Source: Deinococcales bacterium (GTDB taxonomy: Bacteria; Deinococcota; Deinococci; Deinococcales; JAAFIG01). Taken from it: DNA of 64,000 nt. Position 1 is the stretch's first letter. Every line of letters starts with the position of its first letter. A program made the translations under genes and the position numbers. The notes beneath the pieces were generated by a model that was not told where the DNA came from, did not search any database, and saw only the letters and a program-made list of their open reading frames with translations. Positions 1 through 64,000 of this stretch are shown piece by piece. The stretch lies in assembly GCA_043778225.1 (NCBI GenBank), contig JAYWGM010000052.1, forward strand, positions 22,955 through 86,954, read 5' to 3'.

Positions 1-266
1 TAAAACAATTTTGGCAAAAGCACCCACACGCCAAAAGTCCACTTGTTGCTTGGTACAAACTTCTCCGCCGTAACCGTTACACCAATTTTAACGAACTACA
101 AGAACATTTCTCGAGTGCCGATTTGGTCAAACAACTGACTATTTTTGACCTTGGAGGCAACAAATATCGCCTAATCGCTTTTATTCGTTATACCGCCCAA
201 ACCATTTTTGTAAAACACATCCTGACCCACGAAGAATACAACGAATGGAACAAGCAAAAAAATTGA
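1..266 (+). CDS. higB: HigB-family type II toxin (5'-truncated at window edge; not in ORF track)
   Basis: Manual translation from nt 3: KQFWQKHPHAKSPLVAWYKLLRRNRYTNFNELQEHFSSADLVKQLTIFDLGGNKYRLIAFIRYTAQTIFVKHILTHEEYNEW; FDLGGNKYRLI and LTHEEY are HigB_toxin motifs; TGA at 264-266. Confidence 0.85.
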   Translation, partial: KQFWQKHPHAKSPLVAWYKLLRRNRYTNFNELQEHFSSADLVKQLTIFDLGGNKYRLIAFIRYTAQTIFVKHILTHEEYNEWNKQKN

Positions 267-273
267 GGAGACC

Positions 274-690
274 ATGCAAAGCGTTCAACAAATCACAACA
301 CAATGGGCTAAGGTTGCCAAAAACATCAATATCAAACGCCCAGAAACCCAACTCGAGTACGAGGCTTTACTCGAGTTGATAGACCATATTACCGATATTG
401 TTGAAGACCCCGAAAACAATCTTTACTCTGGATTATTAGACTTAGCCTTTATTTACACCCATGACTGGGAAGAACAGCACCAAAAAAACATCATCCCAGA
501 GGCAACACCACGCCAAATGCTTGGGCTACTGATGCAGCAAAAAAACCTTAAACAAACCGACCTCGAGAAAGCGGGTGTTGCAGACCAAGCCTTGTTGTCA
601 AATATCTTAAATGGCAAGCGCAAAATTAGTATTGCACTTGCCAAACGCCTGAGCCATTATTTTAAGGTCTCGAGTGAGTTATTTATTTAG
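274..690 (+). CDS. higA: HigA-family antitoxin (XRE HTH)
   Basis: C-terminal XRE HTH (LKQTDL...LSNILNGKRKISIALAKRLS); follows higB; GAGGAG RBS. Confidence 0.85.
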   Translation: MQSVQQITTQWAKVAKNINIKRPETQLEYEALLELIDHITDIVEDPENNLYSGLLDLAFIYTHDWEEQHQKNIIPEATPRQMLGLLMQQKNLKQTDLEKAGVADQALLSNILNGKRKISIALAKRLSHYFKVSSELFI

Positions 691-1498
691 CTTTAATGCC
701 TTCCACAGACAATAAATACAATTTTTGAAAGGTTGCAGTATCTTGTTCCCAAATCCGCCCGTCAGCTTCGGCAGCCGCTCGTTCAGACTCGAGCAACCAA
801 CCTTCCAAAACCAATTGATGACCTCGAGATGCAATAATACTGGTTTTAAGCGCTATTCGCCGAGCAAAATCGGGTTCGCCTCGAGTGCTGATTTCGTGCT
901 GTGGTGTGACAACAACATTGCTCAGACCAGCTTCCAAGAACAGTCCCTCGAGATGGTCAGCGATTTGGTTATCCATCCCAGCATTGGCTTTCCAAGCGTA
1001 GTACACGTCTAATGCCCGAGCCAAAGATTCTGGTGGTGCTGGGCGTAACTCGCCGCGCAGATGGTTGTAATCAAGTACCAACAGCGCACCACCTATTTTT
1101 AGGGCATTTATCATTTGCTGAACAGCTTTAATCGGATACTCGAGCCATTGCAGCACTCGAGCGCAGATAACCAAATCAAATTCAGTTTCAAAACCAAGGT
1201 TGTAAATATCAGCACTTACAAACTCAAGATTCGATACGTTCGCATGGGCAATTCTGGCTTTCTCGAGCATGGTATCGCTGACATCCGCACCAATGACAAA
1301 CCCTCGAGAACCCAATAAATCTGCTATCCCACGAGTAATCGCACCAGTCCCACAACCCATGTCCAGCACGCAAAGAAAAGGTTTTTGTGACTCGAGTAGA
1401 AAACTGTAAAGCCTCGAGAAATCAGTCTCTAAACTCCGCGCCTCGAGAATACCCGCCGTAGAAGCAGGCATCTCGGCACGTTGTTCTGCCAAACTCAA
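683..1498 (-). CDS. Class I SAM-dependent methyltransferase
   Basis: VLDMGCGTG motif I, ADVS, FDLV. Confidence 0.85.
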
Positions 1499-2529
1499 AG
1501 TAAAGCCAGTACAGCCTTGGTAAAATCACTCGAGCCAGCCGTTCCGCCCAAATCTCGTGTTGGATGACTAAACAAAGCCTGCCGCACGGCTTCTTCGATG
1601 ACTCGAGATAATTCAGGGCGCTTAAAACTGTACTCAAGCATCATCGCGGCACTTAAAATGGTGGCGGCTGGATTGGCAATGCCTTGTCCAGCAATATCTG
1701 GGGCAGAACCATGAATTGGTTCGTACAAGCCAATTTTATCGCCCAGACTGGCACTTGGCAGCAGCCCAAGGCTACCGGGCAGGACACTGGCAAGGTCAGA
1801 CAGAATATCGCCAAACAGATTCTCGGTCAGAATCACATCGTAACGCTTTGGGTTTTTGACCAGAATCATGGCGCAGGAATCCACATATTCGTGGGTTAGT
1901 TCGACATCTGGAAATTCGGTTTTTTGCACATGAACCACAATTCGCCGCCAGAATTCCGAAACCTCGAGAACATTGGCTTTATCCACACTGCATACTCGGT
2001 TTTGCCGTCCTCGAGCCGCCTGAAATGCCCAACGCGCCGCCCGTTCGACCTCGGCTGTGGTGTAACGAATGGTGTTAAAGCCGCCGCCTTCCTCGAGTCC
2101 ACGCGGCTCACCAAAATACGCCCCGCCAAGAAGTTCGCGCAAGATTAAAATATCCACGCCACTGGCAATTTCGGGCTTTAGGGGCGAAAGATGCTCTAAA
2201 CCCGCGTAAACTTTGCTCGGGCGCAGATTGGCATAGACTCCCAAGGCTTTACGCAGTTTCAGTAATCCCGATTCTGGACGCAATTCTCGAGCAATGTTAT
2301 CGGTACTTCCGGGCAGCCCACCGACTGAACCCATCAGCACTGCATCCGAATTTAATGCCGCCTCGAGAACTTCATCACCCAAGGGTTTACCGTATTTTTC
2401 TGTACCCGCCAGCCCAAAGGCATACTCGGCATACTCGAGGTCTGGCGCGAGTTTACTAAGCACTTCTAAAGCGCAACGGATAACTTCTGGACCAACACCA
2501 TCACCGGGAAGAACAACAACTTTTGGCAT
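1495..2529 (-). CDS. leuB: 3-isopropylmalate dehydrogenase
   Basis: [38 protein letters not shown]. Confidence 0.95.
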
Positions 2530-2567
2530 AAATAATTCACTCCTTCAAAAAATAGGACTGCGTGGTT

Positions 2568-3797
2568 TTAAGTGACTTTACTGCGCTGGGCAAATTCTGG
2601 GTTTTTCCATGTTTGGGCTTGCATAATCTGCTCGAGTATTAAAACGGCGTTCATCACATCTGCATGGCTGTTATAAAGCGGCGCAAAACCAAAGCGCACA
2701 ATATCTGGAGCGCGAAAATCGCCGACCACGCCAGCCGCAATTAGGGCTTGCATGATTTCATAACCGTGTGCGTGCGTATAGCTGACTTGCGAACCGCGCA
2801 GCCTTGGCTCGAGTGGCGTAACACAGGCAAAACCATAAACCTCGAGCGGCTGCATGGCGTTTATGAATAAATTGGTCAGGCTCAGGCTTTTGGCTCGAGC
2901 CTGCTCGATGCCAAATTCTTGCCAAAGCTCGAGCGCACCACTCAGGGCAGTCAGTGCCAGCACAGGTGGTGTTCCTGTGGTAAAACGCATGATATTTGGG
3001 GCTGGCGCATAGGCTGAATCGAAAGCAAACGGAGCAGCGTGTCCCATCCAACCAGACAGCACCGGTAGGGCAGCATTTTGGTGTTCTCGAGCCACAAAAA
3101 TAAAAGCAGGTGCGCCAGGTCCACCGTTGAGGTATTTGTAGCCACAGCCAATTGCAAAGTCGGCTTGGCAAGCATTTAATTCAACTGGAAATGCCCCAGC
3201 GCTGTGTGCCAAGTCCCAGATTGCCAATGCACCAACATCGTGCGCTCGAGTGGTTAGGCTTAACATATCGAGGCGTTCGCCAGTGCGGTAGTCCACTTCG
3301 GTTAAAAGTAAGACCGCCACATCATCGGTCAGGGCAGTCTCGAGGTCGGCACGTTTGACAAAGCGCAATTCGTAACGGTTCTCGAGCAAGGCGTTAATGC
3401 CCTGCGCCATGTATAAATCGGTTGGGAAATTATCAATGTCCGAAACAATCACACGCCGGTCGGTGCGCAGTGCCAAGGCTGCCAGCAAAACTTTAAAAAC
3501 ATTGATGCTGGTGCTGTCGCACGACACGACTTCATCGGGGTTTGCGCCAATTAAGGCTGCCAATTGCGCCCCAACCCGAGTTGGTAAATCAATCCAATGG
3601 TTGGTGTTCCAGCTTTGAATTAAGTCTTGTCCCCATTGGCGCTCGATAGCGTCGGCAACTCGAGCCGCAACGTGCTTGGGCAGTGCGCCAAGGCTGTTGC
3701 CGTCTAGGTAAATTTTGCCTTGGGGCAGAAAAAAACGGTCTCGAGCAAGGCGCAATGGGTCGGATAGGTCGAGGGCTTGGGCATCAAGGAGATTCAT
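2568..3797 (-). CDS. kynU: Kynureninase
   Basis: YLDGNSLG, WDLAHSAGA, GCGYKYLNGGPG (PLP lysine), RGSQVS. Confidence 0.95.
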   Translation of the reverse strand: MNLLDAQALDLSDPLRLARDRFFLPQGKIYLDGNSLGALPKHVAARVADAIERQWGQDLIQSWNTNHWIDLPTRVGAQLAALIGANPDEVVSCDSTSINVFKVLLAALALRTDRRVIVSDIDNFPTDLYMAQGINALLENRYELRFVKRADLETALTDDVAVLLLTEVDYRTGERLDMLSLTTRAHDVGALAIWDLAHSAGAFPVELNACQADFAIGCGYKYLNGGPGAPAFIFVAREHQNAALPVLSGWMGHAAPFAFDSAYAPAPNIMRFTTGTPPVLALTALSGALELWQEFGIEQARAKSLSLTNLFINAMQPLEVYGFACVTPLEPRLRGSQVSYTHAHGYEIMQALIAAGVVGDFRAPDIVRFGFAPLYNSHADVMNAVLILEQIMQAQTWKNPEFAQRSKVT

Positions 3798-4120: not shown

Positions 4121-4158
4121 CTGGCGAATATACCAAAAGACTTGGTAGTCTAATAGTC

Positions 4159-4695: not shown

Positions 4696-4840
4696 GCCCT
4701 AGTTACTCGAGCCAAAAGTTGTGGTTTGAGTCGAGAAACGAATTAAGGAACGACAGCTATGGCTGGCATTGTTTTGGACACGATAAAGTCTTTTTGTGGT
4801 GTCCCTCGAGTTTTAGGCTCGAGGGATTGGACTTAGCCGA

Positions 4841-6526
4841 TTATGGCTTGAAAAGCGCAACTCGGTAATTACCACCAAAATTCTCAGAATTATAGACATT
4901 AACCAAGACAGAACCATCATCACTGATGCCGATTGCCTCGAGAATTGTGTAGTTTGGAACAATAATTCGGGTGTATGCACCGTTTTTATACAACCAATAC
5001 TGATAATCGGTACTCGAGGCGAGTCCAGTAGCTCGGAGCAAGACATCACCGTTGTTGTTGACATCGAGAAGCCTCATGTCCGAGTCTTGGATTGGTCCAG
5101 GTACTGTGCCGAGTAGCGTGAGCGCCGCATCGCCCTCGTTCCACTTAAATAGTTGCTGACCATTCAAACCATAGACCGTTCCAGCGTTGGTTAAACCCGA
5201 ACCAAACGTCGAAGTCCTAGGAGTCGGAATAAAATTTGTACCTTTTAGAATACCGTCTGGAAAAAGGACTGTTCCCGAATTATTGATGCCCAGCGCTCTA
5301 TATCCGATGACGCTGTTCGGTGTTTGCCGTGAGAGTTGAGTCGCACTGGCATCGTTGGTTTGCCATCTGAAATGTTTTCCTCCATTTCTAATTTCAGAGG
5401 CAACAACTTGTTTTGCATCATTGCAGCCAAAGACAAAAGTCTCGTCTGCAAAAGGAATTTCGCTGATGCTGTTGGCTGTTGCGTCGTAAAACAAGGCGTG
5501 ATTGATGCGCCCTGTCTTGTACGCCATGTAAGCAACATCACCGTTTGAATTGATACAAGGTTGTGCGTATACATCATACGAAATACTTGTGTAACCACTT
5601 GGCAAGGCGGGTAAAGCCGTAGTTGTTGTTCCACCGTAAACAAACCCAAACTGATTTCCTGTAACTAAGGTATCTACAGTCGTAAAGAACACGCGCCCAT
5701 TGGCACTGATTGCCTTACCTCGAGCCGATGGATTGGTAGAAACAAACGTCACACCGCCACCACTTGGGGCAGCCGTGACCGTGACCGCCACAGCATTTGA
5801 AGTCATCCCACCACTGCTGGCAGTGATGTTGCTCGAGCCTGCCGCTACGCCTGTTACGATGCCAGTACCAGAGACAGTCGCTTTAGCCGTGTCGCTCGAG
5901 GCGAAGGTAAAGACTGGTTGTGTGGCTAACGCCACATTGCTCGAGTCCTTACCAACAGCAGTACAAGTGCTTGTGGCAGCCACGGCAATACTTGTTGGGG
6001 TACAAGTCAAGGCAATACTCGAGAGTGTTGCAACTGGTGATGTGTTCGGTACAACCAAAGTGTACGTGCCGTAACCCGGAATGCTGATGGTGACAGTATT
6101 GGTGCTGGTATCGAAGGTGTAGGTGATGGTTGTCCAAGTTGTGCCGTTTAATTGCAATGCCACGACTTGAGAAATAACGGCTTGAGGGTGCAGATTTCTT
6201 AAACCTAAAGCCGCAATTTCGTTTGGCTCGAGTTTAATTTTAAGGCTGGCATTACTGGCAAAGTTACCGATGCCTCCGCCAACCACAAAGGTTTTTCCTG
6301 CCACGATTTTTTGGTTAGTTGGCACGGCTGGTGGGCTGGTGTTTTCGGTGATGGTTACAGTTGTATCTGTGGTTAGCGCACCGGCTGGGAAAGTGGCACT
6401 GGCAACACCATTGCTCGAGGTAGCAGTTCCACCGCTCGAGCCAATCACTGTGCCTGTGGGTTGTGGCTGTGGACACGCCACCAATACCGCCGAAAGTAAC
6501 GCGCCAAACAAAAAAAATCTTTTCAT
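4841..6526 (-). CDS. Secreted lipoprotein: ZU5-like domain, Ig-like (Big_2) domain, C-terminal beta-propeller-like repeats
   Basis: Lipobox LVAC; FPAGAL...TVTIT; FASSDTAKATVSGTGIVTGVAAGSSNITAS; repeated INxxG motifs. Confidence 0.7.
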   Translation of the reverse strand: MKRFFLFGALLSAVLVACPQPQPTGTVIGSSGGTATSSNGVASATFPAGALTTDTTVTITENTSPPAVPTNQKIVAGKTFVVGGGIGNFASNASLKIKLEPNEIAALGLRNLHPQAVISQVVALQLNGTTWTTITYTFDTSTNTVTISIPGYGTYTLVVPNTSPVATLSSIALTCTPTSIAVAATSTCTAVGKDSSNVALATQPVFTFASSDTAKATVSGTGIVTGVAAGSSNITASSGGMTSNAVAVTVTAAPSGGGVTFVSTNPSARGKAISANGRVFFTTVDTLVTGNQFGFVYGGTTTTALPALPSGYTSISYDVYAQPCINSNGDVAYMAYKTGRINHALFYDATANSISEIPFADETFVFGCNDAKQVVASEIRNGGKHFRWQTNDASATQLSRQTPNSVIGYRALGINNSGTVLFPDGILKGTNFIPTPRTSTFGSGLTNAGTVYGLNGQQLFKWNEGDAALTLLGTVPGPIQDSDMRLLDVNNNGDVLLRATGLASSTDYQYWLYKNGAYTRIIVPNYTILEAIGISDDGSVLVNVYNSENFGGNYRVALFKP

Positions 6527-6565
6527 ACCAGCCTCCGTGGTCTCGAGCCTCGAGAACCTTTAAGC

Positions 6566-6598: not shown

Positions 6599-6625
6599 AA
6601 ATATATTTTTATTGTGCCTGACGAA

Positions 6626-9600
6626 TTATCTGGCAGCCGTCAATCTACCAAACTCAACTGGGATTTCACCGATTTCACGTTCAAAAGTTTGCTTTGCCCG
6701 CTCGAGTGTCTGGGAGGTACGAAAAACATCATCGGCAATCACTTCAAGAAATCGCTCAAGAATCCCAATGTCGAGCGGCTCGAGGTGATGCAGTTTCTCG
6801 AGCAAATTGGCATTGGGTGTTTCAAAACTGGTTTTGAGGACTGTATCCCTAAAACTCTGCCAGAGTTGAGCGCGAATAATCTCGGCTTCGGGGACATCTA
6901 TGCCCTTTAAGAAACTGCCTTTATACCAACCCAAAGCCGCATCAAAATCGAGGCGCTCGAGGGCAGCCAAGAAAAACACAACATCGGCTTTGAGGTTCTG
7001 TAATTCGTACCTGCCATGCTGGTTATCAATCGTGGTGGCATCACCAAGGGCATCGCGCAGTCGTTTGATATTGACCCGAAATTTACCTTCGCTGGTGTGG
7101 CTGCTTTCTTCTTGCCAAAGTGCATCAATCAGTTCGGCTTTGGCAATACTTGGTCCGTCTTCGCGCAAGTAGGCAACCAGCAGCATGGCGAGTAAATCAC
7201 GGACTTTTGAGGCTCGCCAAGGTGTGGCAATACCGTCTTGCTCGAGTCCAAAGACACCAAAGGTGCGTAAGTACGAATTGGCAATCTGAGTGTCGAAATG
7301 CACTTTAGGTTCTTGAAAAAACAGCATGGCTTGCGGGAATAATCTTTCCAGAACAATCAAATGCCCACCAGCCTGTTGGCTGTGCAGCACCCCAAGGGCT
7401 TCTTTGGCTTGGGTTTGCAGCAAATCGGCTTGATTTAAGTACCAATAAATAATGGCTTTTGCCAACTGCATTTCGGCTTTCTGGCAGGCATTACCAAGTG
7501 TGGCACTGTGTTCTAATGCCCTCACATTATGTTCAAGGGCTGTTTGGAATTGTTCTAAACCCAAGTAGACCAAAGCCAGACGGTGATGATGGTCGGCTAA
7601 ACGGTCTGGTGGATAGCTAGAGACGGGCGCATCGGACAGAATTTTTAGCGCCGCCTCGAATTGCCCAATGTTTAAGTTCATTTCAGCCGCCTGTAAATGC
7701 CAGCTATAGAGTTTATCGGGTTCTAAAGCGAGGTCTGAAGCAAAAAATGCTTTAACGGCAGCAACATTACCCAAAGTTGATTCTGTCCAGGCTTGAAAAA
7801 ATTTAGCATTCCCAACTTGGATTGGCTTATTGATTTTTTCAAACAACTCGATGCTACGAGCAAGATAAGCCCGACCAGAGCTTGATTTTGACATTGCAAA
7901 TTCAGCCGCACTGGCGATGTAATAGGCGTGGGCGATTTGCAAACCATCTTGTGTGGCTTGGGCATAACGCAATCCCTGAGCAAACATCTGACTGGCTTTT
8001 GGGTAACTGCCCTGTGATAAATAAATCAAACCAAAGTCGTTGTGCATTTCGGCTAAACGCACCACCATGCCTAGTTCTCGAGCCAAAGCAATGGCTTCCT
8101 GCATTAAAGGCGCAGCTTGTTCGTGGTCTTGGGTGGCAGCTAAAGCTGCACTTTTTTTACTTAAAACCAGCATTAAATAGCGTGGGGTGGGACACTGCCT
8201 TGCCCAAATTTCGGCTTGCTCGAGAACTTCTAAAACCTTTTTTGGCTGGTCTTGGTAGTAATAAAAACGATTCCATTCAAACAGCAGTAACGTCTGGTCT
8301 ATCGCATCGGTGGCAACCAGGGTTTTTAGAATCTCCTCGGCTTGTAAAAACTGCCCTTGGTTAATCTGAAATCGCGCCAAATGAAAGCCGATGCGACTGC
8401 GAATTGGTTCTGGGTATTTGAGAAACCCAGTTTGAGCAAAATCAAACGCCTCTTGCGGTTTTCCAACAAAATCAAGGGCGTAAATACGGTGCAATGCAAC
8501 ATCGGCTGAATCATCGTTTTGGGTTTCCTCGAGAACCACATCGAACTTGCCCAGTTCACGAAGCGACTCGAGATACGCCAGACGAACCGCTTTATCTGGT
8601 TGGTGCTGCAATAAAAATTGCGCCTCGAGGACAACTTCTTCATGGTCATAACTGGCTTTGGCATCGTGCAGCGCCAACCTCGACCATTCGATTGCTTTGG
8701 GATGATTGGCTGCCCGTGCATGATGCGCTTTTTCGGTATTTGAAGCAACGACATCAACTATTTTTAAGTGAAGCTTTTCTAATTCTGCTGCTCCCAATTG
8801 CGCCCGTACAAGCGGCGCAAATAACGGATGTGCCACAGCAAAGACCGTTTGACCCAAACTCAGAGCCTCACGCACTAAACCAAGGTACTCGAGTCTGGTT
8901 GCGATTTCTAGTAAATCGTGAGTTGGCACAGCCAAAATTTTTGAGAGGTCGGATAAGCTCACTTGGCGATTGAGGACACAAATGCCACAAAGTACCATCC
9001 AAAGCCGTGAATCACGTTTGGCATTGGCAATTCGAGCGTTCAGCACCGCCTCGAGATTTGGCGGTAGACTTTTGCCTTTTGGAACTTCAAAAACCCAACT
9101 GATTCCAAGGTCTTTTAATGCCCCGCCATCGCGCAAAAAACGCAGCAACTCGAGGGTATACAGCGGATGACCTTCGGCTCGAGCCATCAGCCATGTGGCT
9201 AGAGCCTCGGGGAAGGCTGGGCTGTTCAAATGGCTTTGCAGTAAATCATGCACCCCAAGCTGGTTCAGTCTTGATAAAACCAAGCGCTGCGGCGCGACTG
9301 CATTTTCGAGCAGCACCGAATCTTGGATAAACCCCTCGAGAAAGTTAATTTGGCTTGGTCGGGCTGAAATCACAAAAAGCACAGGCGCACGCCCCAGCAA
9401 TGCCCGACGATACAACGCCCGAACCCCAGCAAAATCAGCGGCACTAACCTCGTGGGCATCCTCGAGCAACAGCACCAAACCACCGCATCGGTGGGCTAAA
9501 CGTTCAAAAGCCAATGCTACGGCATTCCACAATGCCAATTGGTCGGGCAGCACCACGGCTTGCGCCACTCGCGCCCAAGGTAGTTCTGGCACAAGCCGAC

Positions 9601-9862
9601 GTGCCGCCTCGATAAAAGCGGGGTCGCGCTCGGATTCCAACGCCAGAAAACAATGCCGCAATGCCTGAGCTAACCAGCCATCAGGTGAACAAGAAAGTAC
9701 CAAACCAGTTTTAATTTGGGTCGCAAAACCACGCAAGGCATGGCTTTTACCAATTCCTGCCTCCCCCTCGAGCAGCAGCATCTGCGTCTGACCACGGGCA
9801 GAGGCTGCCAACGCCGAATGCAGACCGCTCAGAACTTCGGAATTGGTATTCTCAAAAAGCAT
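6626..9862 (-). CDS. STAND/AAA_16 ATPase-TPR transcriptional regulator with C-terminal wHTH/BTAD (SARP-like) module
   Basis: Walker A GEAGIGKS, Walker B LLLEDAH, GHPLY, TPR-like helices, C-terminal LRTFG...LLAMLL...LIDALW...LRDALG...WYKGSFL; start 9862 has TATCAT 6 nt upstream. Confidence 0.8.
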   Translation of the reverse strand: MLFENTNSEVLSGLHSALAASARGQTQMLLLEGEAGIGKSHALRGFATQIKTGLVLSCSPDGWLAQALRHCFLALESERDPAFIEAARRLVPELPWARVAQAVVLPDQLALWNAVALAFERLAHRCGGLVLLLEDAHEVSAADFAGVRALYRRALLGRAPVLFVISARPSQINFLEGFIQDSVLLENAVAPQRLVLSRLNQLGVHDLLQSHLNSPAFPEALATWLMARAEGHPLYTLELLRFLRDGGALKDLGISWVFEVPKGKSLPPNLEAVLNARIANAKRDSRLWMVLCGICVLNRQVSLSDLSKILAVPTHDLLEIATRLEYLGLVREALSLGQTVFAVAHPLFAPLVRAQLGAAELEKLHLKIVDVVASNTEKAHHARAANHPKAIEWSRLALHDAKASYDHEEVVLEAQFLLQHQPDKAVRLAYLESLRELGKFDVVLEETQNDDSADVALHRIYALDFVGKPQEAFDFAQTGFLKYPEPIRSRIGFHLARFQINQGQFLQAEEILKTLVATDAIDQTLLLFEWNRFYYYQDQPKKVLEVLEQAEIWARQCPTPRYLMLVLSKKSAALAATQDHEQAAPLMQEAIALARELGMVVRLAEMHNDFGLIYLSQGSYPKASQMFAQGLRYAQATQDGLQIAHAYYIASAAEFAMSKSSSGRAYLARSIELFEKINKPIQVGNAKFFQAWTESTLGNVAAVKAFFASDLALEPDKLYSWHLQAAEMNLNIGQFEAALKILSDAPVSSYPPDRLADHHHRLALVYLGLEQFQTALEHNVRALEHSATLGNACQKAEMQLAKAIIYWYLNQADLLQTQAKEALGVLHSQQAGGHLIVLERLFPQAMLFFQEPKVHFDTQIANSYLRTFGVFGLEQDGIATPWRASKVRDLLAMLLVAYLREDGPSIAKAELIDALWQEESSHTSEGKFRVNIKRLRDALGDATTIDNQHGRYELQNLKADVVFFLAALERLDFDAALGWYKGSFLKGIDVPEAEIIRAQLWQSFRDTVLKTSFETPNANLLEKLHHLEPLDIGILERFLEVIADDVFRTSQTLERAKQTFEREIGEIPVEFGRLTAAR

Positions 9863-9916
9863 AAAAACATGATAGCCCAAAACTTGATCTTAAAAATTAA
9901 AAAGCAAAAATAAGCC

Positions 9917-17103: not shown

Positions 17104-17240
17104 AAGGTAAAAAGGTTAAAAGTGAAAAGGTTAAAAGTAAACACCAAGCTCAGCCTCATTAGCTCGATTGATTCATTCTCGAGTCTTACTGCTCGTGTCC
17201 TAATCTTTTCACCTTTTTGCCCTTTTACCTTTTTACCCTT
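17104..17240. repeat. Inverted pair of short octamer tandem arrays (AAGGTNAA-like / TTTTNCCT-like)
   Basis: 17104-17140 purine-rich array; 17206-17240 complementary pyrimidine-rich array. Confidence 0.7.
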
Positions 17241-19452: not shown

Positions 19453-20268
19453 ATGCAAAATAAGAATGTACAATTGCTCGAGGCAAAAAATGTAACCCTG
19501 CGTTTTGGTGGCGTGACGGCTGTCAATGATGTTTCGTTTACTGTTGGGGTGAATGAGACTGTCGCCCTGATTGGACCAAACGGTGCAGGTAAAAGCAGCC
19601 TTTTTAACTGCATTACCGCCCTCTACAAGCCGCAAGTCGGTACAATCCAATTTGCTGGACACGAATTAACAAGCTCGAGTCCAGACCAGATTGCCAGCTT
19701 TGGCATCTCGAGGACTTTTCAAAACATCGAATTGTTTGGCGGTTTAACGGTTCTCGAGAATTTACTGCTCGGGCGACATCAGCACCTCAAAGTCAGTTTA
19801 TTTCACGCCATGCTTGGCACACCAACTTGGGTCAAATCCGAAGTCGAGCAAATTAAACGCGCCGAAGCGATGATTGAACTTTTGGAACTGCAACTCTACC
19901 GTGACCGCCGTGTGCGTGGGCTACCTTATGGGGTGCAGAAAATTGTTGAAATCGGACGCGCCTTGGTATCTGAACCTAAATTACTGTTGATGGATGAACC
20001 TGTGGCGGGTTTAACTTCGGACGAAAAAGACGAATTGGTACAGCGTTTGTCTGAACTCAAAAACGAACTAGGCTTATCTATTTTGTTGGTCGAACACGAC
20101 ATTCGAGTGGTCTCGAGCCTTGCTGAGCGGATTGTGGTTCTCGAGTACGGACGTAAAATTGCCGATGGTACACCCGAGGAAATCCGCAACGACCCTGTGG
20201 TGATTGCCGCCTACCTTGGTGAAGAAGCCCAGACCTTAGAAAAGCAGGGTGAAAAGGTCAAAGGGTGA
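19453..20268 (+). CDS. ABC ATP-binding protein (LivG-like)
   Basis: GPNGAGKS, RTFQN, LPYG, LLMDEP. Confidence 0.92.
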   Translation: MQNKNVQLLEAKNVTLRFGGVTAVNDVSFTVGVNETVALIGPNGAGKSSLFNCITALYKPQVGTIQFAGHELTSSSPDQIASFGISRTFQNIELFGGLTVLENLLLGRHQHLKVSLFHAMLGTPTWVKSEVEQIKRAEAMIELLELQLYRDRRVRGLPYGVQKIVEIGRALVSEPKLLLMDEPVAGLTSDEKDELVQRLSELKNELGLSILLVEHDIRVVSSLAERIVVLEYGRKIADGTPEEIRNDPVVIAAYLGEEAQTLEKQGEKVKG

Positions 20269-20421
20269 AAAGGTGAAAAGGTCAAAACAAGGGTTAAAAG
20301 GTCAAAGGGTGAAAAGGTGAAAAGTAGTTCTTGTACTCAAAATCAGCAAAATATTGTCCAAAAAAGCAGCCATAGAGGTTTGCTTTTTCCCTTTTTCCCT
20401 TTTTCCCTTTTTCCCTTTTCC
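20246..20421. repeat. Second inverted pair of octamer tandem arrays
   Basis: AAAGGTGA/AAGGGTGA/AAAGGTCA-type units at 20246-20324; (CTTTTTCC)x4 from 20383. Confidence 0.75.
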
Positions 20422-39947: not shown

Positions 39948-40541
39948 GTGATGGACTCTTTGGTTGGGCGTTCCGAATCTTTTAGCCTCGAATTTGCTGC
40001 GCTCGAGGAGTTACGGCTTGGCGACCAAAATGCTTGGGAGGATTTAATCCGCACCCATCAAAACCGAATGCTGAATTATCTATTTCATCTCGAGGGCAAT
40101 TACGAAGATGCCTTAGATTTGTGCCAAGAAACGTTTTTTAGGGCTTGGAAAGGGATTGCCACATTTCGGGCGGGTGAGCCACTTTTGCCGTGGCTGTACA
40201 CCATTGCCCGCAATGTCCAAATCGAAAAACACCGCCGCAAAACCCACGGGCAGTTTTCGCTCGAACAAGCCTTTGAAGAAACTGGCTTTGAACCAACCGC
40301 CAACACCGCTTCGGCGGTCAAAAATGCCGAAGTCTCGCAGAATGCCGAACGGGTTCGGGCAGCCTTGCTCGATTTACCCGAGGAATACCGCAGCGCAGTG
40401 TTGTTGCGTTTTATGCAAGACCAAACGTATGAAGAAATTGCCCAAGTCCAAAATTGTGCCATTGGCACAGCCAAAAGTCGGGTTTTTCGTGGCAAAGAAA
40501 TGCTCGAGAAAGCCCTGACTGGGCGGGTGATGCTCGAATGA
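39948..40541 (+). CDS. ECF sigma factor
   Basis: DLCQETFFRAW, WLYTIARN, YEEIA...GTAKSRVFR. Confidence 0.92.
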   Translation: MMDSLVGRSESFSLEFAALEELRLGDQNAWEDLIRTHQNRMLNYLFHLEGNYEDALDLCQETFFRAWKGIATFRAGEPLLPWLYTIARNVQIEKHRRKTHGQFSLEQAFEETGFEPTANTASAVKNAEVSQNAERVRAALLDLPEEYRSAVLLRFMQDQTYEEIAQVQNCAIGTAKSRVFRGKEMLEKALTGRVMLE

Positions 40542-41998
40542 CCCTACCTGAACTCTTGCACAACTTACCAACGGTCAATGCCCCAGCCCCTTTTGCCTCA
40601 GAGCTTGCGGCACAGGTTGCTTTGGCAGCGCAACTCGAGCAGCTATCCAATGCCCATCCGCCACCCAATTTTGCTGCCCAGACCGCCCGACGGATTGCCT
40701 CCGATGCGCTTCCGATGCTTTGGCTCGAAACCGTACAAGCCCCAGCCGATTTTGCGGCGCTTATGGCAGCCCAAATTGCCACCGAAGCCAACCCCTTGCG
40801 CTTCCTCGAGCCACAAACTGTACCACCTAAATTTGCGGCAGGCTTAGCAGCACAAATTGCCAATCCGTTAGTCAGTGCGCCCCAAGTGGCTGCGCCGCTT
40901 CACTTTGCAACTCGAGTCTCGAGAAAAATTGCTGAGGATGCTGCACTCAATAGCGAACACGACCGTACTCCATTGTATTTTTTAGGGACACTCTTGGCAG
41001 GTGTGGCGCTGGCTTTTGGCGCTTTGACTTGGACGGACACCCAAGCGGCTGGGGTGGCGCTTTTTGAAGTGCTGCGTTCACTGCCCGAAACATTGGTTTT
41101 GCCAGTTGCCTTGGTGGCATTGTTTGCGGTTGTGGCAACTGTGGCGCAGCGTGTGGTGCGTTTTCCAGCCGCCTTAGCCGCCTTTGCTGTGGCAGCTGTT
41201 TTTGCTGTACCGCAATTATCGGGTTGGTTTGGTAATACCCGCATCGAAGGCGCAGCCCAACTGGGTAGTGTGGTGCGTTTTGCTGGCGATATTACGGTGG
41301 TTGGCGAAGTACGCGGCGATGTGATTGCGATTGGCGGCAATGTGCGACTCGAGCGCGGCGCACGGGTTTCTGGTCGAATCCTGACTTTTTTGGGTGATGT
41401 CAATATCCCCCAAGGCACAAGTGCCAAAGCTGTCAGTGCGGTACTGGGCAATTTAAGTTCTGCCAGTCAGGACAAAACCCAAAAAAGCATTTCTTTGCAA
41501 GGGCTCGGTGTTGCCAGTGCTTTTCGACCAATTCACAACCTGATTGCTGCCAATACATGGCAATGGTGGTACTTGGGTTTACTGAGCGTTTTGGCACTGA
41601 TGCTGATGCTTTTACCAAAGTTGCAAAAAAGTCTCGAGCCATCTTTTTTTGCCGATGCCGGACGCTCGCTTGGCTTAGGCTTGCTGCTGGTTTTTCTGAC
41701 CGTTCCAGTCGTGGCGCTGGGCGGTTTAAGCGTACTTGGAACACCCATTGCTTTGCTGCTTGGTATTTTTACGGTGCTGGCATTCTCGAGTGGGGCGGCG
41801 ATTGCAATTGTGGCTTTTGGACAGCGCTTTTTTGGCAATCAGTTGTGGGTAGCCCTGCCGGGTTTACTAATTTTCGCTGCCACCATGTTGCTGCCACCTG
41901 TTGCCATCACCCTCTGGCTGTTGGCTGGTGCGTGGGGGGCTGGAGCGCTGCTCAGTGCGATTCGTCAAGGTGCGTTTATTCGGGCGGTGGCTGGATAA
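40538..41998 (+). CDS. Putative anti-sigma factor with bactofilin-like domain and multiple TM helices
   Basis: ATGA-coupled to ECF; repeated APxxFA motifs; GDITVVGEVRGDVIAIGGNVRL. Confidence 0.7.
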   Translation: MTLPELLHNLPTVNAPAPFASELAAQVALAAQLEQLSNAHPPPNFAAQTARRIASDALPMLWLETVQAPADFAALMAAQIATEANPLRFLEPQTVPPKFAAGLAAQIANPLVSAPQVAAPLHFATRVSRKIAEDAALNSEHDRTPLYFLGTLLAGVALAFGALTWTDTQAAGVALFEVLRSLPETLVLPVALVALFAVVATVAQRVVRFPAALAAFAVAAVFAVPQLSGWFGNTRIEGAAQLGSVVRFAGDITVVGEVRGDVIAIGGNVRLERGARVSGRILTFLGDVNIPQGTSAKAVSAVLGNLSSASQDKTQKSISLQGLGVASAFRPIHNLIAANTWQWWYLGLLSVLALMLMLLPKLQKSLEPSFFADAGRSLGLGLLLVFLTVPVVALGGLSVLGTPIALLLGIFTVLAFSSGAAIAIVAFGQRFFGNQLWVALPGLLIFAATMLLPPVAITLWLLAGAWGAGALLSAIRQGAFIRAVAG

Positions 41999-52046: not shown

Positions 52047-54479
52047 ATGATTCCTTCTGCGGCTCGAGTAATTATTGTTGGTGGTGGCATTGTTGGCTCG
52101 AGTCTGGCGTATCACCTGACCAAACTCGGCTGGACAGATGTGCTGCTTTTAGAACAAAATACTTTAGCGGGTGGCACGACTTGGCACGCGGCTGGCTTGG
52201 TTGGGCAGTTACGCACCAGCAACAGCATGACCAAAATTAACAAGTACAGTGTCGAACTCTATCCGCGTCTCGAGGCAGAAACAGGCGTGGCAACGGGCTG
52301 GAAAACCACAGGCAGTTTAATTGTCGCAACCACCACAGAACGGATGATTCAGTTGCAGCGCACGATCGCCATGGCAGAACTTTTTGGGGTCAAAGCCGAA
52401 ATGATCAGCCCAAAAGCTGCCCAAGAAAAATGGAATTTAATGCGAACAGACGACCTGCTTGGCGCAGCGTGGCTGCCCGATGACGGCAAGTGCTTACCTA
52501 AAGAAACAGCGCTGGCACTAGCCAAAGGCGCTCAGCTGGGCGGTGCGACTATACTCGAGCATATTCGGGTGCTGGATGTGTTGCGCCACCACGGGCGGGT
52601 GACGGGTGTCAGAACCCAAGAAGGCGATATTGCTGCCGAATTTGTGGTGCTGTGCGGTGGAATGTGGACTCGAGAACTGGGGCTAAAAATCGGGGTCAAT
52701 ATCCCACTTTTTCCAGTCGAGCATCATTATGTGGTCTCCGAACCAATCGAAGGCGCATTCGATGAGTTACCCGTCGGGCGCGACCCAAACCGTTGTATTT
52801 ACTATCGCGGCGAAGGAAGTCGCATCATGCTTGGGGCGTTTCAGGCATACACCAAACCGTGGGATGTGCAACCCGTACCGCCAGATTTTAGCAACGCCTT
52901 GCTCGAGCCAGATTGGCAAAAATACGCTGAACCATTGGCGGCTGGAAAATGGCGTATTCCAAGGCTCGAGCAGGCTAAATTTGAGAAATTTGTCAATGGT
53001 CCAGAATCGTTTACGCCCGACAACAATTTTTTGATGGGCGAGACCCCAGAATTGCGCGGACTTTTTGTGCTGGCTGGTTTTAACAGCGTTGGTATTGCCA
53101 GCGCTGGTGGGGCGGGCAAGTATTTAGCCGAATGGATGGTGGATGGCGAACCGAGCATTGACTTGTGGAGCGTTGACCTTAGGCGCTTTGGCATCGGTCA
53201 GAACAACCGTACTTTTTTGCGGCAGCGTGTGACCGAGGTGCTGGGCTTACATTATCAAATGGCGTACCCAAATCGTGAGCTAAGCACTGGGCGCAACTTG
53301 CGCTTATCGCCATTGCACAGTTTGCTCGAGCAAGCTGGAGCGTGTTTTGGACAAAAGGCTGGTTTTGAGCGCCCCAATTGGTTTGCTCGAGGTGGCTTAA
53401 AACCAGTTGCCGAGTACGCTTGGGGACGGCAAAATTGGTTTATCATGCACAAGCGAGAACACCTTGCCACAAGGCAAGCAGTCGCTATTTTTGACCAGAG
53501 CGCCTTTGCTAAACTCGAGTTGACTGGGCGGGATGCTTTAAGTCTGTTGCAACGGCTTTGCGCCAACCAAATGGATGTCCCCATCGGACAATCGGTCTAC
53601 ACCGCCATGCCCAATGCCAAAGGCGGTTTTGAATCCGACCTGACCGTGCTGCGGCTCGGCGAAACGCATTTTAGAATCATCACTGGCTCGAGCCAAGCGG
53701 TTCATGATGCTGACTGGATTTGGCGTAACGTGCTGCCAAGCGAGCAAATCAGCCTGACCGATGTGACCGAAAGCTACGCCGTGCTTGGTTTGATGGGCGC
53801 GAATTCTCGAGCCGTTCTCGAGGCGCTGACCACGACTGACCTGAGCCACCAAGCCTTTGGCTTTGGCGAGGCAAAATACATTGAACTTGGGTACTCGAGG
53901 GTGCTGGCGGTGCGTATCACCTATGTGGGCGAACTTGGCTGGGAACTGCATATCCCAAATAGCCAAGCGGTGCAAGTCTACACCGACCTGATGCGGGTCG
54001 GCTCGAGTTTTGGGATTGAAAACGCTGGGCATTATGCGATAAATTCCTTACGGCTCGAGAAAGGCTACCGAGCTTGGGGCGCAGATATATCGCCAGAAGA
54101 CACGATTCTCGAAGCTGGTTTAGGTTTTGCAGTGGATTGGAATAAAGAATTTATCGGTAAAGCTGCCTTGCTTGAGCAACAAAAAAAAGGGCTGACCCGA
54201 AGGCTGGTGCATTTTGTCCTCGAGAACCCCGAACCAGTGCTGTGGGGTTCAGAACCGATTCTGCGCGATGGCATCGCGGTTGGTTACACCACTTCGGGCA
54301 GTTATGGGCATACGCTTGGCGCAGCCGTTGGCATGGGCTATGTGAAAAACTCGAGTGGCGTGGATACCGCTTGGGTGCGTGCTGGGCATTATGAAATCGT
54401 AATCAATGCCCAAAAATACACCGCCAAAGCCTATTTGCGCTCACCCTATGACCCAGAACGGCAGCGCATTTTGAGGTAA
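52047..54479 (+). CDS. GcvT-family FAD-dependent dehydrogenase (sarcosine/dimethylglycine dehydrogenase-like)
   Basis: GGGIVG, GTTWHAAG, GPESFTPD, YVGELGWE, LRLEKGY. Confidence 0.9.
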   Translation: MIPSAARVIIVGGGIVGSSLAYHLTKLGWTDVLLLEQNTLAGGTTWHAAGLVGQLRTSNSMTKINKYSVELYPRLEAETGVATGWKTTGSLIVATTTERMIQLQRTIAMAELFGVKAEMISPKAAQEKWNLMRTDDLLGAAWLPDDGKCLPKETALALAKGAQLGGATILEHIRVLDVLRHHGRVTGVRTQEGDIAAEFVVLCGGMWTRELGLKIGVNIPLFPVEHHYVVSEPIEGAFDELPVGRDPNRCIYYRGEGSRIMLGAFQAYTKPWDVQPVPPDFSNALLEPDWQKYAEPLAAGKWRIPRLEQAKFEKFVNGPESFTPDNNFLMGETPELRGLFVLAGFNSVGIASAGGAGKYLAEWMVDGEPSIDLWSVDLRRFGIGQNNRTFLRQRVTEVLGLHYQMAYPNRELSTGRNLRLSPLHSLLEQAGACFGQKAGFERPNWFARGGLKPVAEYAWGRQNWFIMHKREHLATRQAVAIFDQSAFAKLELTGRDALSLLQRLCANQMDVPIGQSVYTAMPNAKGGFESDLTVLRLGETHFRIITGSSQAVHDADWIWRNVLPSEQISLTDVTESYAVLGLMGANSRAVLEALTTTDLSHQAFGFGEAKYIELGYSRVLAVRITYVGELGWELHIPNSQAVQVYTDLMRVGSSFGIENAGHYAINSLRLEKGYRAWGADISPEDTILEAGLGFAVDWNKEFIGKAALLEQQKKGLTRRLVHFVLENPEPVLWGSEPILRDGIAVGYTTSGSYGHTLGAAVGMGYVKNSSGVDTAWVRAGHYEIVINAQKYTAKAYLRSPYDPERQRILR

Positions 54480-56266: not shown

Positions 56267-56289
56267 GATGCACAGCATATGCTTTCTGT

Positions 56290-60668: not shown

Positions 60669-60725
60669 GTTTTACTCGAGACTTAAACTATCAGTCTCGA
60701 GTTCTGCGATTTATAGATACTTCAA

Positions 60726-60944
60726 TAGACCTCTTGCATAAGTCCGAATCATTCATTTTTAGCACGGCGAACACTTCTTGACCATAAACTCGCACCTAAC
60801 GGGCATGGTCGCTTCTTGACCATAAACTCGCACCTAACGGGCATGGTCGCAAGGTTCGCGCTCTACAAAAATCGATTGTCTATAGGGGTGTTGCTTGTCA
60901 TCATCCTGTTTTCAGCGATGGAAATTATTTATGCAAGAGGTTTA
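60726..60944. mobile_element. MITE-like element with terminal inverted repeats, containing a REP pair and a tandem dimer of the 38-bp mini-element (60775-60850)
   Basis: TAGACCTCTTGCATAA ... TTATGCAAGAGGTTTA (15/16 match); GGCGAACAC[38][38]AAGGTTCGCGCTCTAC. Confidence 0.7.
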
Positions 60945-61006
60945 ATTACGAAGAGCTTTGGCTTTATCGTGCAAACACAACCCAATTTTGATTAGAATAG
61001 CCAGAC

Positions 61007-62965
61007 ATGAAGACCTCTTCTCAAATGCGCCCGAACATTCCTTTGGCAATCGTGGCGGTGTTGGCTGCGTTCTCGAGTTTTGTGTTGCCTTTTGCAACCA
61101 TCACCCGCGCTTTTGGTGGTCAAGCGGCAATTTTGGTACATCCAAACACGATTGTGGATTTTACGGGTTTTTTGCCAAAATCCATGCCCGATTTCTCGAG
61201 TACCAGCTTATTAATTTGGCTGACGTTGGCAGCCCTTTTGGTCACGGCTGGCTTGGCGTGGTTTGCACCCAAACTGGTCTGGCTTGGTGGAGCGCTGACG
61301 GCTGTCTTGGTGGTCTCGAGTTTTGTGGTTTATGCCATGACTTTAGATGCCGTTCATGCACCACTTTTAGCCAATGGCACAGCTTACCGGCGTTTGCCAT
61401 TTGTTAATTTTGGACCTTCGCTGTGGGCATTTTTGGCATTTTTTACGGGCATTGGCGCAATTGTCTCGAGCCTACGCAGTGCAGGGCGTTTGTCGGATTT
61501 TTTTCGTGGCATAACTGGCGTGGTGATTCCAGCCATTTCAATTTTACTGGCATTGATTGTTTGCGGGGTGCTGATTTTACTGTTGCAAGTGCCACCAGGA
61601 CTCGAGAAAGTGCCAGCCAGTCTGATGCGCGATTGGTTAGCTCGAGCCGATTTACTCTGGTTTAGTTACAGTATGCTGTTTGGTTCGATTCTGCCCAAGT
61701 TCCGCCCGACCCTTGATTTTGCACCCGTCTGGCAGAGTTTATCTCTGGCTACACCACTTATTTTTACGGGCTTAGGATTGGCGTTTGGTTTTCGGACTGG
61801 TCTTTTTAACATTGGTGCGCCCGGGCAAGTGATTATGGGCGGAATTTTTTGCGCGGCAGTTGGTATTTATCTTCCAGGTCCTTGGTTTATTATCGCGCCG
61901 CTTTGTGTGATTGCGGCGGCAGTTGGTGGTGGGCTTTGGGGTGCATTGCCGGGTTGGCTCAAAGGTCGTTTTGGCGCGTCCGAGGTAATCAATACGATTA
62001 TGCTCAATAACATTGCCAGTGGTGTTTTGGTTTTTTTAATTGGTTCAAACCAAGCCAGTTTTTTTGGTAGCACTGTCAATCTGCCATTCAAAGCCGAAGG
62101 TGGCGAAGCCAGCAGCCTCGACTTTGGCACTGGAGCGCGACTTTCTAACATCACTGAGCCATTTGGCTTTGCTCGAGACGGTTCTAATTTTATGGCATTG
62201 CCCGTACCATTTTTATTGCTTGGGCTAATTCTTGGTTTTGCTTTTTCCAAAGGCAGTCTGCAAACTCGAGGCATCAGTGCTGGCATTGGCGCGGTGCTTG
62301 GGCTGGTGCTTGGTTTTATCTTGCGTGAAATTCCAGTCACGGGGGCAATGCAGACAGCCGCCTTAAACTTAGCTTTTGTGATTGCGATTTTGGCAGCTGG
62401 TTTTGTGGGTGTGTTTTTGTGGCGTACCAAATGGGGTTTCGAGCTTCGAGCGGTTGGTTTAAGCCCCAAAGCTGCCGAGTATGGCGGGGTCAATATCGCT
62501 AAAAATACCGTCTTGGCGATGGCAATTTCTGGCGCACTCTGCGGCTTAGCCGCGACCCATTTTACGATGGGTGGCGCTTTGGCAGAGTACCGCTTAAAAC
62601 AATCTATTCCAGCCGATAGCGTTGGTTTTGGTGGTATCACGGTGGCGTTGCTTGGACAAAATACCCCCGTCGGTGTGGTTGCCTCGAGTATTTTATTTGG
62701 CGTGCTTGGCACAGGTGGGCTGCGCCTTGACCAAGCCCTAGATGATATTTCTCGAGAAATTGTAACGGTGCTGCAAGCCCTGATTGTGCTGTTTATTGCC
62801 ACCCAAGGCTTTTTGAGCGGTGATTTTTTACGCAGCATCAATAACATTAAAAAACCTGAGCCACCAAAAAAAGACCACACCACACCAGACTCGAGCCACG
62901 CCGCTACAGACTCGAGCCACGCCGCCCCAGACTCGAGCCACGCCAAAAAAGAAGGTGACGCATAA
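61007..62965 (+). CDS. Nucleoside/simple-sugar ABC permease (NupB-like) with N-terminal extension
   Basis: PLIFTGLG, LFNIGAPGQ, SEVINTIMLN, GFELRAVG. Confidence 0.88.
   Translation: MKTSSQMRPNIPLAIVAVLAAFSSFVLPFATITRAFGGQAAILVHPNTIVDFTGFLPKSMPDFSSTSLLIWLTLAALLVTAGLAWFAPKLVWLGGALTAVLVVSSFVVYAMTLDAVHAPLLANGTAYRRLPFVNFGPSLWAFLAFFTGIGAIVSSLRSAGRLSDFFRGITGVVIPAISILLALIVCGVLILLLQVPPGLEKVPASLMRDWLARADLLWFSYSMLFGSILPKFRPTLDFAPVWQSLSLATPLIFTGLGLAFGFRTGLFNIGAPGQVIMGGIFCAAVGIYLPGPWFIIAPLCVIAAAVGGGLWGALPGWLKGRFGASEVINTIMLNNIASGVLVFLIGSNQASFFGSTVNLPFKAEGGEASSLDFGTGARLSNITEPFGFARDGSNFMALPVPFLLLGLILGFAFSKGSLQTRGISAGIGAVLGLVLGFILREIPVTGAMQTAALNLAFVIAILAAGFVGVFLWRTKWGFELRAVGLSPKAAEYGGVNIAKNTVLAMAISGALCGLAATHFTMGGALAEYRLKQSIPADSVGFGGITVALLGQNTPVGVVASSILFGVLGTGGLRLDQALDDISREIVTVLQALIVLFIATQGFLSGDFLRSINNIKKPEPPKKDHTTPDSSHAATDSSHAAPDSSHAKKEGDA
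62886..62944 (+). repeat. In-frame 21-bp triplet repeat carrying CTCGAG
   Basis: CAGACTCGAGCCACGCC(GCTA/GCCC) x3, encoding DSSHA(A) repeats. Confidence 0.9.
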
Positions 62966-63891
62966 TGGACATCGCCGTAATTATGGTCGTACTTGCCACA
63001 ACCATCCGCAGCACCACACCTTTACTTTTTGCCGCCCTTGGCGGGATGTACTCTGAACGTTCTGGCGTGGTCAATATCGCGCTTGAAGGCATCATGCTGT
63101 TTGGGGCATTGACGGCTGCGATTGTGGCACAGCAACTCGAAGCCCCTCTTTTGGCAGCCAATCCGGGCATCACCATCTGGTGGACAGCTTGGGCGGGTGT
63201 TTTTGCCGCCATGGTCGTCGGGGCATTGGTCGGTTGGGTTCACGCTGTTGTCAGTATTAAATACAAAGCCGACCAAGTGATTAGTGGTACAGCCATTAAC
63301 CTGATGGCATTGGGTTTGCCAGCCGTGGTGCTGCAATTTTTTTACAACAATACCTCCGACTCCGAAAAAGTCCAGAATTCTTTGCCACTGTGGGGTCTCG
63401 AGGGATTTTCTTTTTCGCCCCTGACTTATATTTCGTTTTTACTTGTGCCGATTACGGCATACATTATTTACCGAACCCCTTTTGGTCTGCGTTTACGGGC
63501 AGTTGGCGAAGCTCCACAAGCGGCAGCCAGTGTTGGGGTCAATGTTTTTAGAACCCGTTATGCTGCCGTGATTATTTCTGGGATATTGGCAGCTTTGGCG
63601 GGGGCATTTTTAAGCATTGGCAACCTCGATGGTTTTAACCGAGGCATGAGCGCTGGGCAAGGTTTTATTGCTTTGGCTGCCCTGATTTTTGGGCGTTATC
63701 AGCCGTGGCAAGTGATGGGGGCGTGTCTGCTTTTTGGATTTTTCCGTGCGCTTGCTATTCGTTTAGGCGGCGATAACATTCTGCCCAGTGCCTTGGTGGA
63801 TAACCTGCCGTTTATCATCACCATGTTTGTGCTGGCTGGCTTTATCGGCAAGGCTCGAGCGCCAAAAGCGATTGGTAAACCGTATCCGTAA
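62965..63891 (+). CDS. Nucleoside/simple-sugar ABC permease (NupC-like)
   Basis: SERSGVVNIALEG, DQVISG, GLRLRAVGE, GFIALAALIFG. Confidence 0.9.
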   Translation: MDIAVIMVVLATTIRSTTPLLFAALGGMYSERSGVVNIALEGIMLFGALTAAIVAQQLEAPLLAANPGITIWWTAWAGVFAAMVVGALVGWVHAVVSIKYKADQVISGTAINLMALGLPAVVLQFFYNNTSDSEKVQNSLPLWGLEGFSFSPLTYISFLLVPITAYIIYRTPFGLRLRAVGEAPQAAASVGVNVFRTRYAAVIISGILAALAGAFLSIGNLDGFNRGMSAGQGFIALAALIFGRYQPWQVMGACLLFGFFRALAIRLGGDNILPSALVDNLPFIITMFVLAGFIGKARAPKAIGKPYP

Positions 63892-64000
63892 TGAGTTTTA
63901 TCATACCAAATTAAGGTAAAGAATCGCTTTTTGATTCTTTACCCGACCAACGGGAGTATTAACGATACCGAATTTAACGCGAGAACGGCAGTTTGCCGTT

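Follow-up and report, generated by a model that had tools for sequence, protein, structure and literature searches.

Among highly iterated palindromes (HIPs), HIP1 is the cyanobacterial word GCGATCGC, and GGCGCC, GCsGC, rCCGGy and GGGATCCC are alternate HIPs of cyanobacteria (Elhai 2015, PMC4390886; Xu 2018, PMC5861425; here and below, statements on published work refer to the parts of each paper that were available). Four HIP1-rich strains without a recognisable CGATCG methyltransferase are listed by Elhai among the densest in CGATCG (PMC4390886). For the unrelated word CTCGAG, the orphan methyltransferases M.Mhy14884I, M.Mch9957IV and M.Mru1279II and clusters of sites at the origin in Nocardia have been described, and in its available part the same paper reports no genome-wide CTCGAG excess for Deinococcota (Blow 2016, PMC4752239). 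Such an excess is the subject of this report: the hexamer palindrome CTCGAG was analysed in a 64,000-nucleotide stretch of an uncultured Deinococcales bacterium (the window, positions 1..64000), in the genome that holds it (G000), and across its family and order. The excess is real, family-wide and strong. No report of a CTCGAG excess in this group, or of a HIP outside cyanobacteria, was found in the literature searched, outside which most subscription papers fell; the HIP1 papers found were, by their titles, all on cyanobacteria.

Abundance, reading frames and range of CTCGAG

The window carries 403 dispersed copies of CTCGAG (6.3/kb), with all 32 of its 2-kb bins occupied by 7-19 copies each, and the word is its top hexamer, nearly threefold above the next. 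By position, 218 copies read CTC-GAG (Leu-Glu), 66 xCT-CGA-G and 98 C-TCG-AG, and 21 lie outside called genes. The hand counts of the original prediction for 1..3000 (19 copies in 1-2000 and 10 in 2001-3000) were exact, and both adjacent doublets that it named are present, each with its copies 7 bases apart, one at 6542..6554 between the open reading frames (ORFs) 4841-6526 and 6626-9880 and the other at 40911..40923 inside the ORF 40454-41998. The window is a sample of a genome-wide feature and is not special; 44 of the 54 ORFs scanned match Pfam, and the genes are ordinary ones such as those for gyrase B, topoisomerase I, RNase J and ABC transporters. G000 (4.03 Mb in 107 contigs, 89% complete) contains 24,877 copies, equal to 6.17/kb or about one per 160 bases, which are found on 107 of 107 contigs at 4.0-10.6/kb; the sequencing runs containing its DNA are biofilm metagenomes. 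The observed count exceeds expectation 27x, 47x and 15x at Markov orders 0, 1 and 2, respectively, where the order 2 model absorbs the trimers of CTCGAG itself and its 15x falls just under the 16x cut used by Xu for octamers. Once the model was trained with the sites masked, the excess was 63-73x. The runner-up hexamer palindrome in G000 reaches only 1.9x its expectation, so that CTCGAG shows the first feature of a HIP in the broad sense, namely one palindrome that greatly exceeds its Markov expectation. A longer consensus was ruled out by flank and longer-word counts, since the 20 positions around the word are without a conserved flank and no 7- to 10-mer is outstanding, leaving the exact 6-mer.

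For the analysis of reading frames, 3,795 genes of G000 were called with our own hexamer model and shuffled five times while keeping each protein and the codon use of each gene. The genes hold 13,717 copies in the Leu-Glu frame, 4,475 as xCT-CGA-G and 4,526 as C-TCG-AG, compared with approximately 1,780, 400 and 310 after shuffling, an excess of 8-15x across all three frames, and 2,176 copies were found between genes where 69 were expected (31x). In the window, 200 synonymous shuffles gave means of 26.8, 5.0 and 6.8 (maxima 37, 10 and 13) for the same three frames. The original prediction, which had set vanishing under such shuffles or confinement to the Leu-Glu frame as grounds for its own rejection, was therefore upheld on this point, and occurrence in every frame as well as in non-coding DNA is a second broad HIP feature. 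Of the positions that the proteins of G000 permit, 69%, 56% and 43% are filled (Leu-Glu, xCT-CGA-G and C-TCG-AG, respectively), with the Arg codon CGA used in 89% of site contexts versus 13% elsewhere and the Ser codon TCG in 82% versus 16%. Use of the available positions is flat, at 0.57-0.61, across all ten deciles of a codon-based expression proxy, and a dependence on expression was discarded. The encoded peptides are themselves enriched, as they are for uptake sequences: the dipeptide Leu-Glu occurs at 2.31x expectation, SS at 1.59 and [APST]R[VADEG] at 1.28 (reversed controls 0.96 and 0.90), with SR at only 1.02. Because Leu-Glu is raised to this level while the reversed Glu-Leu stands at 0.96, CTCGAG appears to have altered amino acids; the pressure appears to act on DNA and to change proteins with it. 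Leu-Glu was mostly at 1.0-1.3, with one value of 1.5, in sampled genomes without all-frame CTCGAG enrichment. As separate observations on G000, TTG and CTG show a 2- to 5-fold deficit as Leu codons where Glu follows, which is more than CTCGAG accounts for, and the word is found in 6 of 69 calls of transfer RNA or transfer-messenger RNA genes, 4 of them in a cluster of at least 15 transfer RNA genes at ~9900-13600 of contig G000:C19.

The range of the word was assessed in 19 genomes sampled from the family of G000 (five genera; genome sizes were rounded for the densities) and in 42 other genomes of the order, for which the frames were analysed in samples of 20-60 kb per genome. All 19 family genomes carry CTCGAG at 4.3-6.8/kb. 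Among the other 42, the 11 of family f3 avoid the word (0.03-0.27/kb; G056 has 0 copies in 40 kb) and the remainder lie at 0.6-2.9/kb. Genus g9 and several genomes of families f2 and f4 show an excess in the Leu-Glu frame only, and moderate all-frame enrichment, with small counts, was seen in G059, G042 and G025, which belong to other families. G059, with a density of 2.1/kb, uses 8 of 8 and 14 of 17 contexts. Within one order, CTCGAG thus runs from avoided through moderate to saturating.

Turnover and spacing of sites

Retention of sites was measured in 273 coding segments aligned between G003, G005 and G001 (6-8% apart), G004 (11-12%) and G000 (19%). Alignments of at least 300 bases and at least 82% identity (72% for G000) were kept, with genes at least 55% identical to G000. 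Where the amino acids were unchanged, sites were retained at 0.94, 0.91, 0.86 and 0.82 at 6, 8, 12 and 19% divergence, compared with 0.67, 0.49, 0.28-0.32 and 0.16 where these codons lay outside sites. A one-mismatch variant lay opposite a full CTCGAG in 0.28-0.56 of cases versus 0.04-0.15 for control changes. Conservation of sites between genomes beyond that of their codons, also a broad HIP feature, is thereby present in coding DNA. On the three close branches, polarised changes comprised 56 synonymous losses where 190 were expected (0.29x), and 9 gains in 44 chances against 2.7 expected (3.3x); on the G004 branch there were 42 synonymous losses against 111 expected and 0 gains in 3 chances. 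By our own population-genetic calculation, an excess of 30-70x would require loss at ~0.02-0.03x if it arose from protection alone and gain at ~30-70x if it arose from creation alone, and a scaled selection of 3-4 gives gain at 3-4x and loss at 0.1-0.5x, depending on the differences still segregating. The gain and loss data fit a selection-like force (fitness or recombination drive) and not plain mutational creation or protection. Creation of sites opposed by position-specific selection is a less likely alternative. Writing of the whole word in one step was considered and dropped, as multi-base differences (0.36-0.51 vs 0.26-0.32 in controls) were only modestly raised and lay in locally divergent DNA. 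The DNA-level process that had been proposed for this Deinococcota lineage is borne out: CTCGAG is in excess in every frame and also between genes, its loss is slowed and its gain is faster.

Gaps between sites are slightly more even than random, with a variance/mean of 0.81 at 100-200 bases. Against a null in which used and unused positions were shuffled within each gene and frame, site pairs in genes occur at 0.46 of expectation at 7-11 bases, 0.54 at 12-17 and 0.77 at 18-23, with 0.77-0.89 across 18-39 as a whole, rising to 0.86-0.96 up to 80 bases and 1.0 beyond 100. Close pairs, such as both doublets of the window, are accordingly under-represented genome-wide, and short-range repulsion is also present in G013. 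Between G003 and G000, differences are more frequent at sites that have another site no more than 60 bases away (50/262 vs 61/528, p = 0.006), the differing fraction being 0.22, 0.17, 0.15 and 0.10 by neighbour-distance class. The repulsion in genes is partly due to avoidance of hairpins and partly generic. Periodicity of spacing, a check put forward with the original prediction, was also examined, and no period other than the codon period was seen; short-range or helical periodicity was rejected as a candidate on this basis. No long-range period of 10-90 kb, a trait of HIP1, was seen in G000 contigs longer than 60 kb or in 400 kb of G013, by a method that was not that of Xu and had low power given little contiguous DNA.

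Two further observations concern the assembly and its gene order. A short multi-copy intergenic element at 17123-17240 and 20248-20390 of the window is marked in both runs by spikes in depth, joints and loose ends. Gene order is poorly conserved within the genus, as the neighbours of the gene at 52047-54479 (L027-L034) scatter over many G000 contigs at ~78-80% identity.

Resident phage DNA, enzymes and candidate mechanisms

Foreign and resident mobile DNA was examined through the one array of clustered regularly interspaced short palindromic repeats (CRISPR) found in G000 (G000:C80:17-2691; L472-L501; 44 repeats and 43 spacers) and through prophages. CTCGAG is present in 10 of the 43 spacers, where 7.3 were expected at the host rate and ~0.3 by chance, and none of the 43 contains any of 23 palindromes that the host avoids. 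No spacer matches G000 over more than ~20 bases, no full-length match was found among the 471 loci compared or the 14 top-ranked later loci, and the array repeat was found in 0 of 18 relatives. The terminase family PF03237, which was present in 2 of 19 family genomes, identified a prophage in G011 (L576 and L577; G011:C40) with 4.0/kb in a 20-kb stretch and 5.6/kb in the 5 kb that follow (host 6.3) and a prophage in G001 (L578; G001:C242) with 6.8/kb over 6 kb. The first scan of viral sequences covered 2 of 64 parts and returned mostly GC-rich chance matches, with 51 of 131 loci too short to judge, and a second gave 2 loci with a host-like word signature among 72. The IMG/VR viral contig L566 carries the word evenly spread at 6.7/kb, together with terminase and RecT-like genes and a protein of unknown type that is 70% identical to one in the G011 prophage; both it and L526 were picked through CTCGAG itself, which biases their density. 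Since the spacers and two prophages carry near-host density, CTCGAG marks resident DNA generally, and a rule inside the cell is favoured over an uptake signal. Several side observations belong here: two 314-aa structural-looking genes of the G011 prophage carry one CTCGAG each, the same prophage carries a gene for a 639-aa cytosine methyltransferase, L526 (IMG/VR) is a phage contig with head genes and the word signature of the family but without an independent host link, and at 30895-32767 of the window an AAA_21 (AbiEii-type) ATPase gene and the DUF4276 gene after it form a possible defence or toxin-antitoxin pair.

Restriction-type methyltransferases were surveyed with PF07669 in 19 genomes (30 of its matches were fetched) and with PF01555, PF00145 and PF02086 in 6 of the 19, and a motif filter recovered proteins from 95 methyltransferase loci, missing one G013 protein, L139. 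G000 gave 8, 6, 6 and 4 matches to PF07669, PF01555, PF00145 and PF02086, several of them in low-G+C genes. The recovered proteins form small clusters, those of the one-contig genome G013 clustering with none of G000, and no 5-methylcytosine enzyme was common to all 6 genomes compared. Enzymes of two types, taken from genomes outside the family but within the order, served as protein queries: L070, presumably TaqI-like, matched 0 of 19 family genomes, and L073, which we take to be PaeR7I-like, gave a single 32% match among the 19. Profiles of both types matched only known restriction-type genes in G000, and a relative of L073 in G031 adjoins a broken XhoI-family gene. No family-wide methyltransferase was found with the four Pfam families and the two protein queries in 61 genomes, other enzyme classes not being searched. 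None of the 19 family genomes gave a match to the XhoI-family nuclease PF04555, which was found in 4 of the 42 others. NucS gave strong matches in 12 of the 19, G000 not being among them, and in 7 of the 11 genomes of the avoiding family f3; as the presence of NucS does not track the word, it was rejected as a cause. The methyltransferase and repair lead of the original prediction was not borne out, as no family-wide methyltransferase or family XhoI nuclease was found, NucS does not follow the word and the rates fit selection or drive. Separately, one cytosine methyltransferase (L015, L103 and L104) is common to G000, G006 and G003 and absent from G009, G011 and G013; by its likeness it is a putative CCGG enzyme, which would match the avoidance of CCGG.

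The data show a selection-like force on the exact hexamer, in the chromosome and in resident phage DNA, independent of protein, of the expression proxy and of any shared methyltransferase found. The interpretation that is preferred, though tentatively and at somewhat less than an even chance, is that CTCGAG marks the whole genome and that a putative host protein likely recognises it, as an exact hexamer in double-stranded DNA, with no need for a family-wide methyltransferase. A palindrome read so exactly would point to a dimeric protein. Resident DNA would fare better with one site per ~50-150 bases, possibly through protection from a host nuclease or through loading of a packaging or repair factor. 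An additional copy beside an existing one would add less, the spacing hinting at local coverage, and phages would gain the word by replicating under the same rule. Several results weigh against this interpretation. No protein reading CTCGAG was found, helical phasing was not found, and intergenic DNA shows little or no neighbour repulsion. Genes also avoid other inverted 6-mer pairs, although less (0.47-0.67 at 6-14 bases, ~0.9 further), and the rarer palindromes GAATTC and CAATTG show the same neighbour effect; for old sites lost in close relatives, the neighbour test was not significant (16/93 vs 28/223, p = 0.29). An earlier, smaller and stricter polarised set gave weaker rates (27 losses vs 55, or 0.49x; gains 1/15 vs 0.9), and biased recombination predicts the same gain and loss pattern as selection. 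The spacers come from a single array, the genome carrying it is 89% complete, the prophages number only two, both resident in the chromosome, and an unusual enzyme may lie beyond the four Pfam families surveyed, three of them in only 6 of 19 genomes.

The strongest alternative, possible but rather unlikely, is a molecular drive through gene exchange, whereby fragments with CTCGAG are taken up or recombined more often and their alleles spread without benefit to the cell. The same has been argued for uptake sequences and suggested for HIP1, and slowed loss with faster gain is equally expected. The near doubling of encoded peptides is as reported for uptake sequences (PMC2817400), and HIP1 raises transformation (bioRxiv 10.1101/2024.09.10.611283; PMC13756078). 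Many long site-free gaps in G000 are AT-rich, foreign-looking genes, and gene flow against restriction would explain the equally strong avoidance of palindromes, with 29 of 64 hexamer palindromes at or below 0.05 of expectation and GGCC at 131 copies (0.01) in G000. This restriction-type avoidance distorts proteins as well (Trp-Pro 0.10, Gly-Pro 0.34) and is weaker in G013. However, the density in spacers and prophages is close to that of the host, kilobase fragments would need far fewer sites than one per 160 bases, and known uptake sequences have 9-10-base cores (PMC2817400), whereas CTCGAG is without flank preference.

A methylation-free self tag, in which a host factor would coat or license DNA at CTCGAG every ~100-150 bases and DNA without the word would be destroyed or not maintained, is considered unlikely. 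If true, it would be the reverse of restriction, with chromosome, prophages and invading phages writing the word into their genes and changing their proteins. It would then also be a HIP system independent of the cyanobacterial one, running from avoidance to saturation in one order. Methylation-directed repair in the sense of Elhai 2015, in which mismatch repair would keep the methylated site strand and the resulting mutation bias would create sites, is less likely still. It would affect any resident DNA, phages included, and active N6-methyladenine (m6A) CTCGAG methyltransferases without a cognate nuclease occur in Marinithermus and Meiothermus (Blow 2016, PMC4752239). G025 and G042 hold such an enzyme type and are moderately enriched outside the Leu-Glu frame, with small counts, and on the three close branches C>T loss was 29/56.8 at the central C versus 15/68.3 at the outer C. 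The G004 branch, however, shows no such central-C excess (14/32.6 vs 18/40.1), and a gain of ~3x neutral compares with the 30-60x needed by creation alone. No orthologue of either enzyme type was found in the 19 family genomes, the methyltransferases of G013 and G000 do not cluster together, and G059 is enriched in all frames (L156, L157 and L249) without either type. The idea that the word results from preferences at the level of proteins or codons (Leu-Glu, codon pairs), or from base composition, is almost certainly wrong, for although the Leu-Glu frame holds 60% of coding sites and Leu-Glu alone brings high-GC relatives to 1-2/kb, it is refuted by the protein-preserving shuffles and opposed by the excess between genes, the context-bound use of CGA and TCG and the level of Glu-Leu. 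The remaining weight, beyond the genome-wide mark, drive and methylation-directed repair, is left to mechanisms not thought of.

Comparison with known systems

Chi, the word of RecBCD/AddAB, is likewise short and over-represented, and it could label a cell's own DNA, with phages copying it. It is asymmetric and oriented with replication; CTCGAG differs in being symmetric and far denser. Uptake sequences are not known to be palindromic. The uptake signal sequences (USS) of Pasteurellaceae and the DNA uptake sequences (DUS) of Neisseriaceae resemble CTCGAG as short words that lie in several coding frames, about double the encoded peptides and are sparse in many foreign-looking genes (PMC2817400). 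They have a 9-10-base core (PMC2817400), an orientation and flanks, whereas CTCGAG is a six-base palindrome without flanks, several times denser, and is also present in prophages and CRISPR targets. An XhoI/PaeR7I restriction-modification system would pair cognate enzymes with avoidance of the site; here the XhoI-family nuclease was not found in the 19 family genomes and the site is enriched. The orphan CTCGAG methyltransferases share the word and partly the order, and methylate it without a cognate nuclease in cultured relatives (PMC4752239), but the two enzyme types tested are without a family orthologue and the enrichment is genome-wide instead of forming an origin cluster.

The gradient within the order permits a comparative hunt for the reader of CTCGAG, for which G059 is useful, and moderately enriched cultured relatives may permit binding and transformation tests. 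Presence of the word in phages narrows the candidate mechanisms, and its effect on amino acids is a clear case of DNA-level pressure rewriting a proteome. HIP1 remains the closest known system. As in HIP1, a single palindrome is hugely over-represented in coding and non-coding DNA and conserved beyond codons, with a function likewise unsettled (PMC4390886; PMC5861425). HIP1 proper is GCGATCGC or a derivative in a cyanobacterium with a conserved cognate methyltransferase; here the word is an unrelated hexamer (67% G+C) in another phylum, CGATCG is avoided (182 copies in G000, 0.11 of expectation), no such methyltransferase was found among the families and genomes searched, and no periodicity was seen. 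The HIP1 octamer reaches 0.2-2.73/kb (PMC5861425) compared with 6.2/kb for CTCGAG, although hexamer and octamer are not like for like. The HIP1-like behaviour first proposed for the window was thus recovered in every broad HIP feature tested: CTCGAG works like HIP1, yet it is not HIP1, and this unrelated word, acting without any family-wide methyltransferase found, is likely a counterpart, in another phylum, of the cyanobacterial palindrome.

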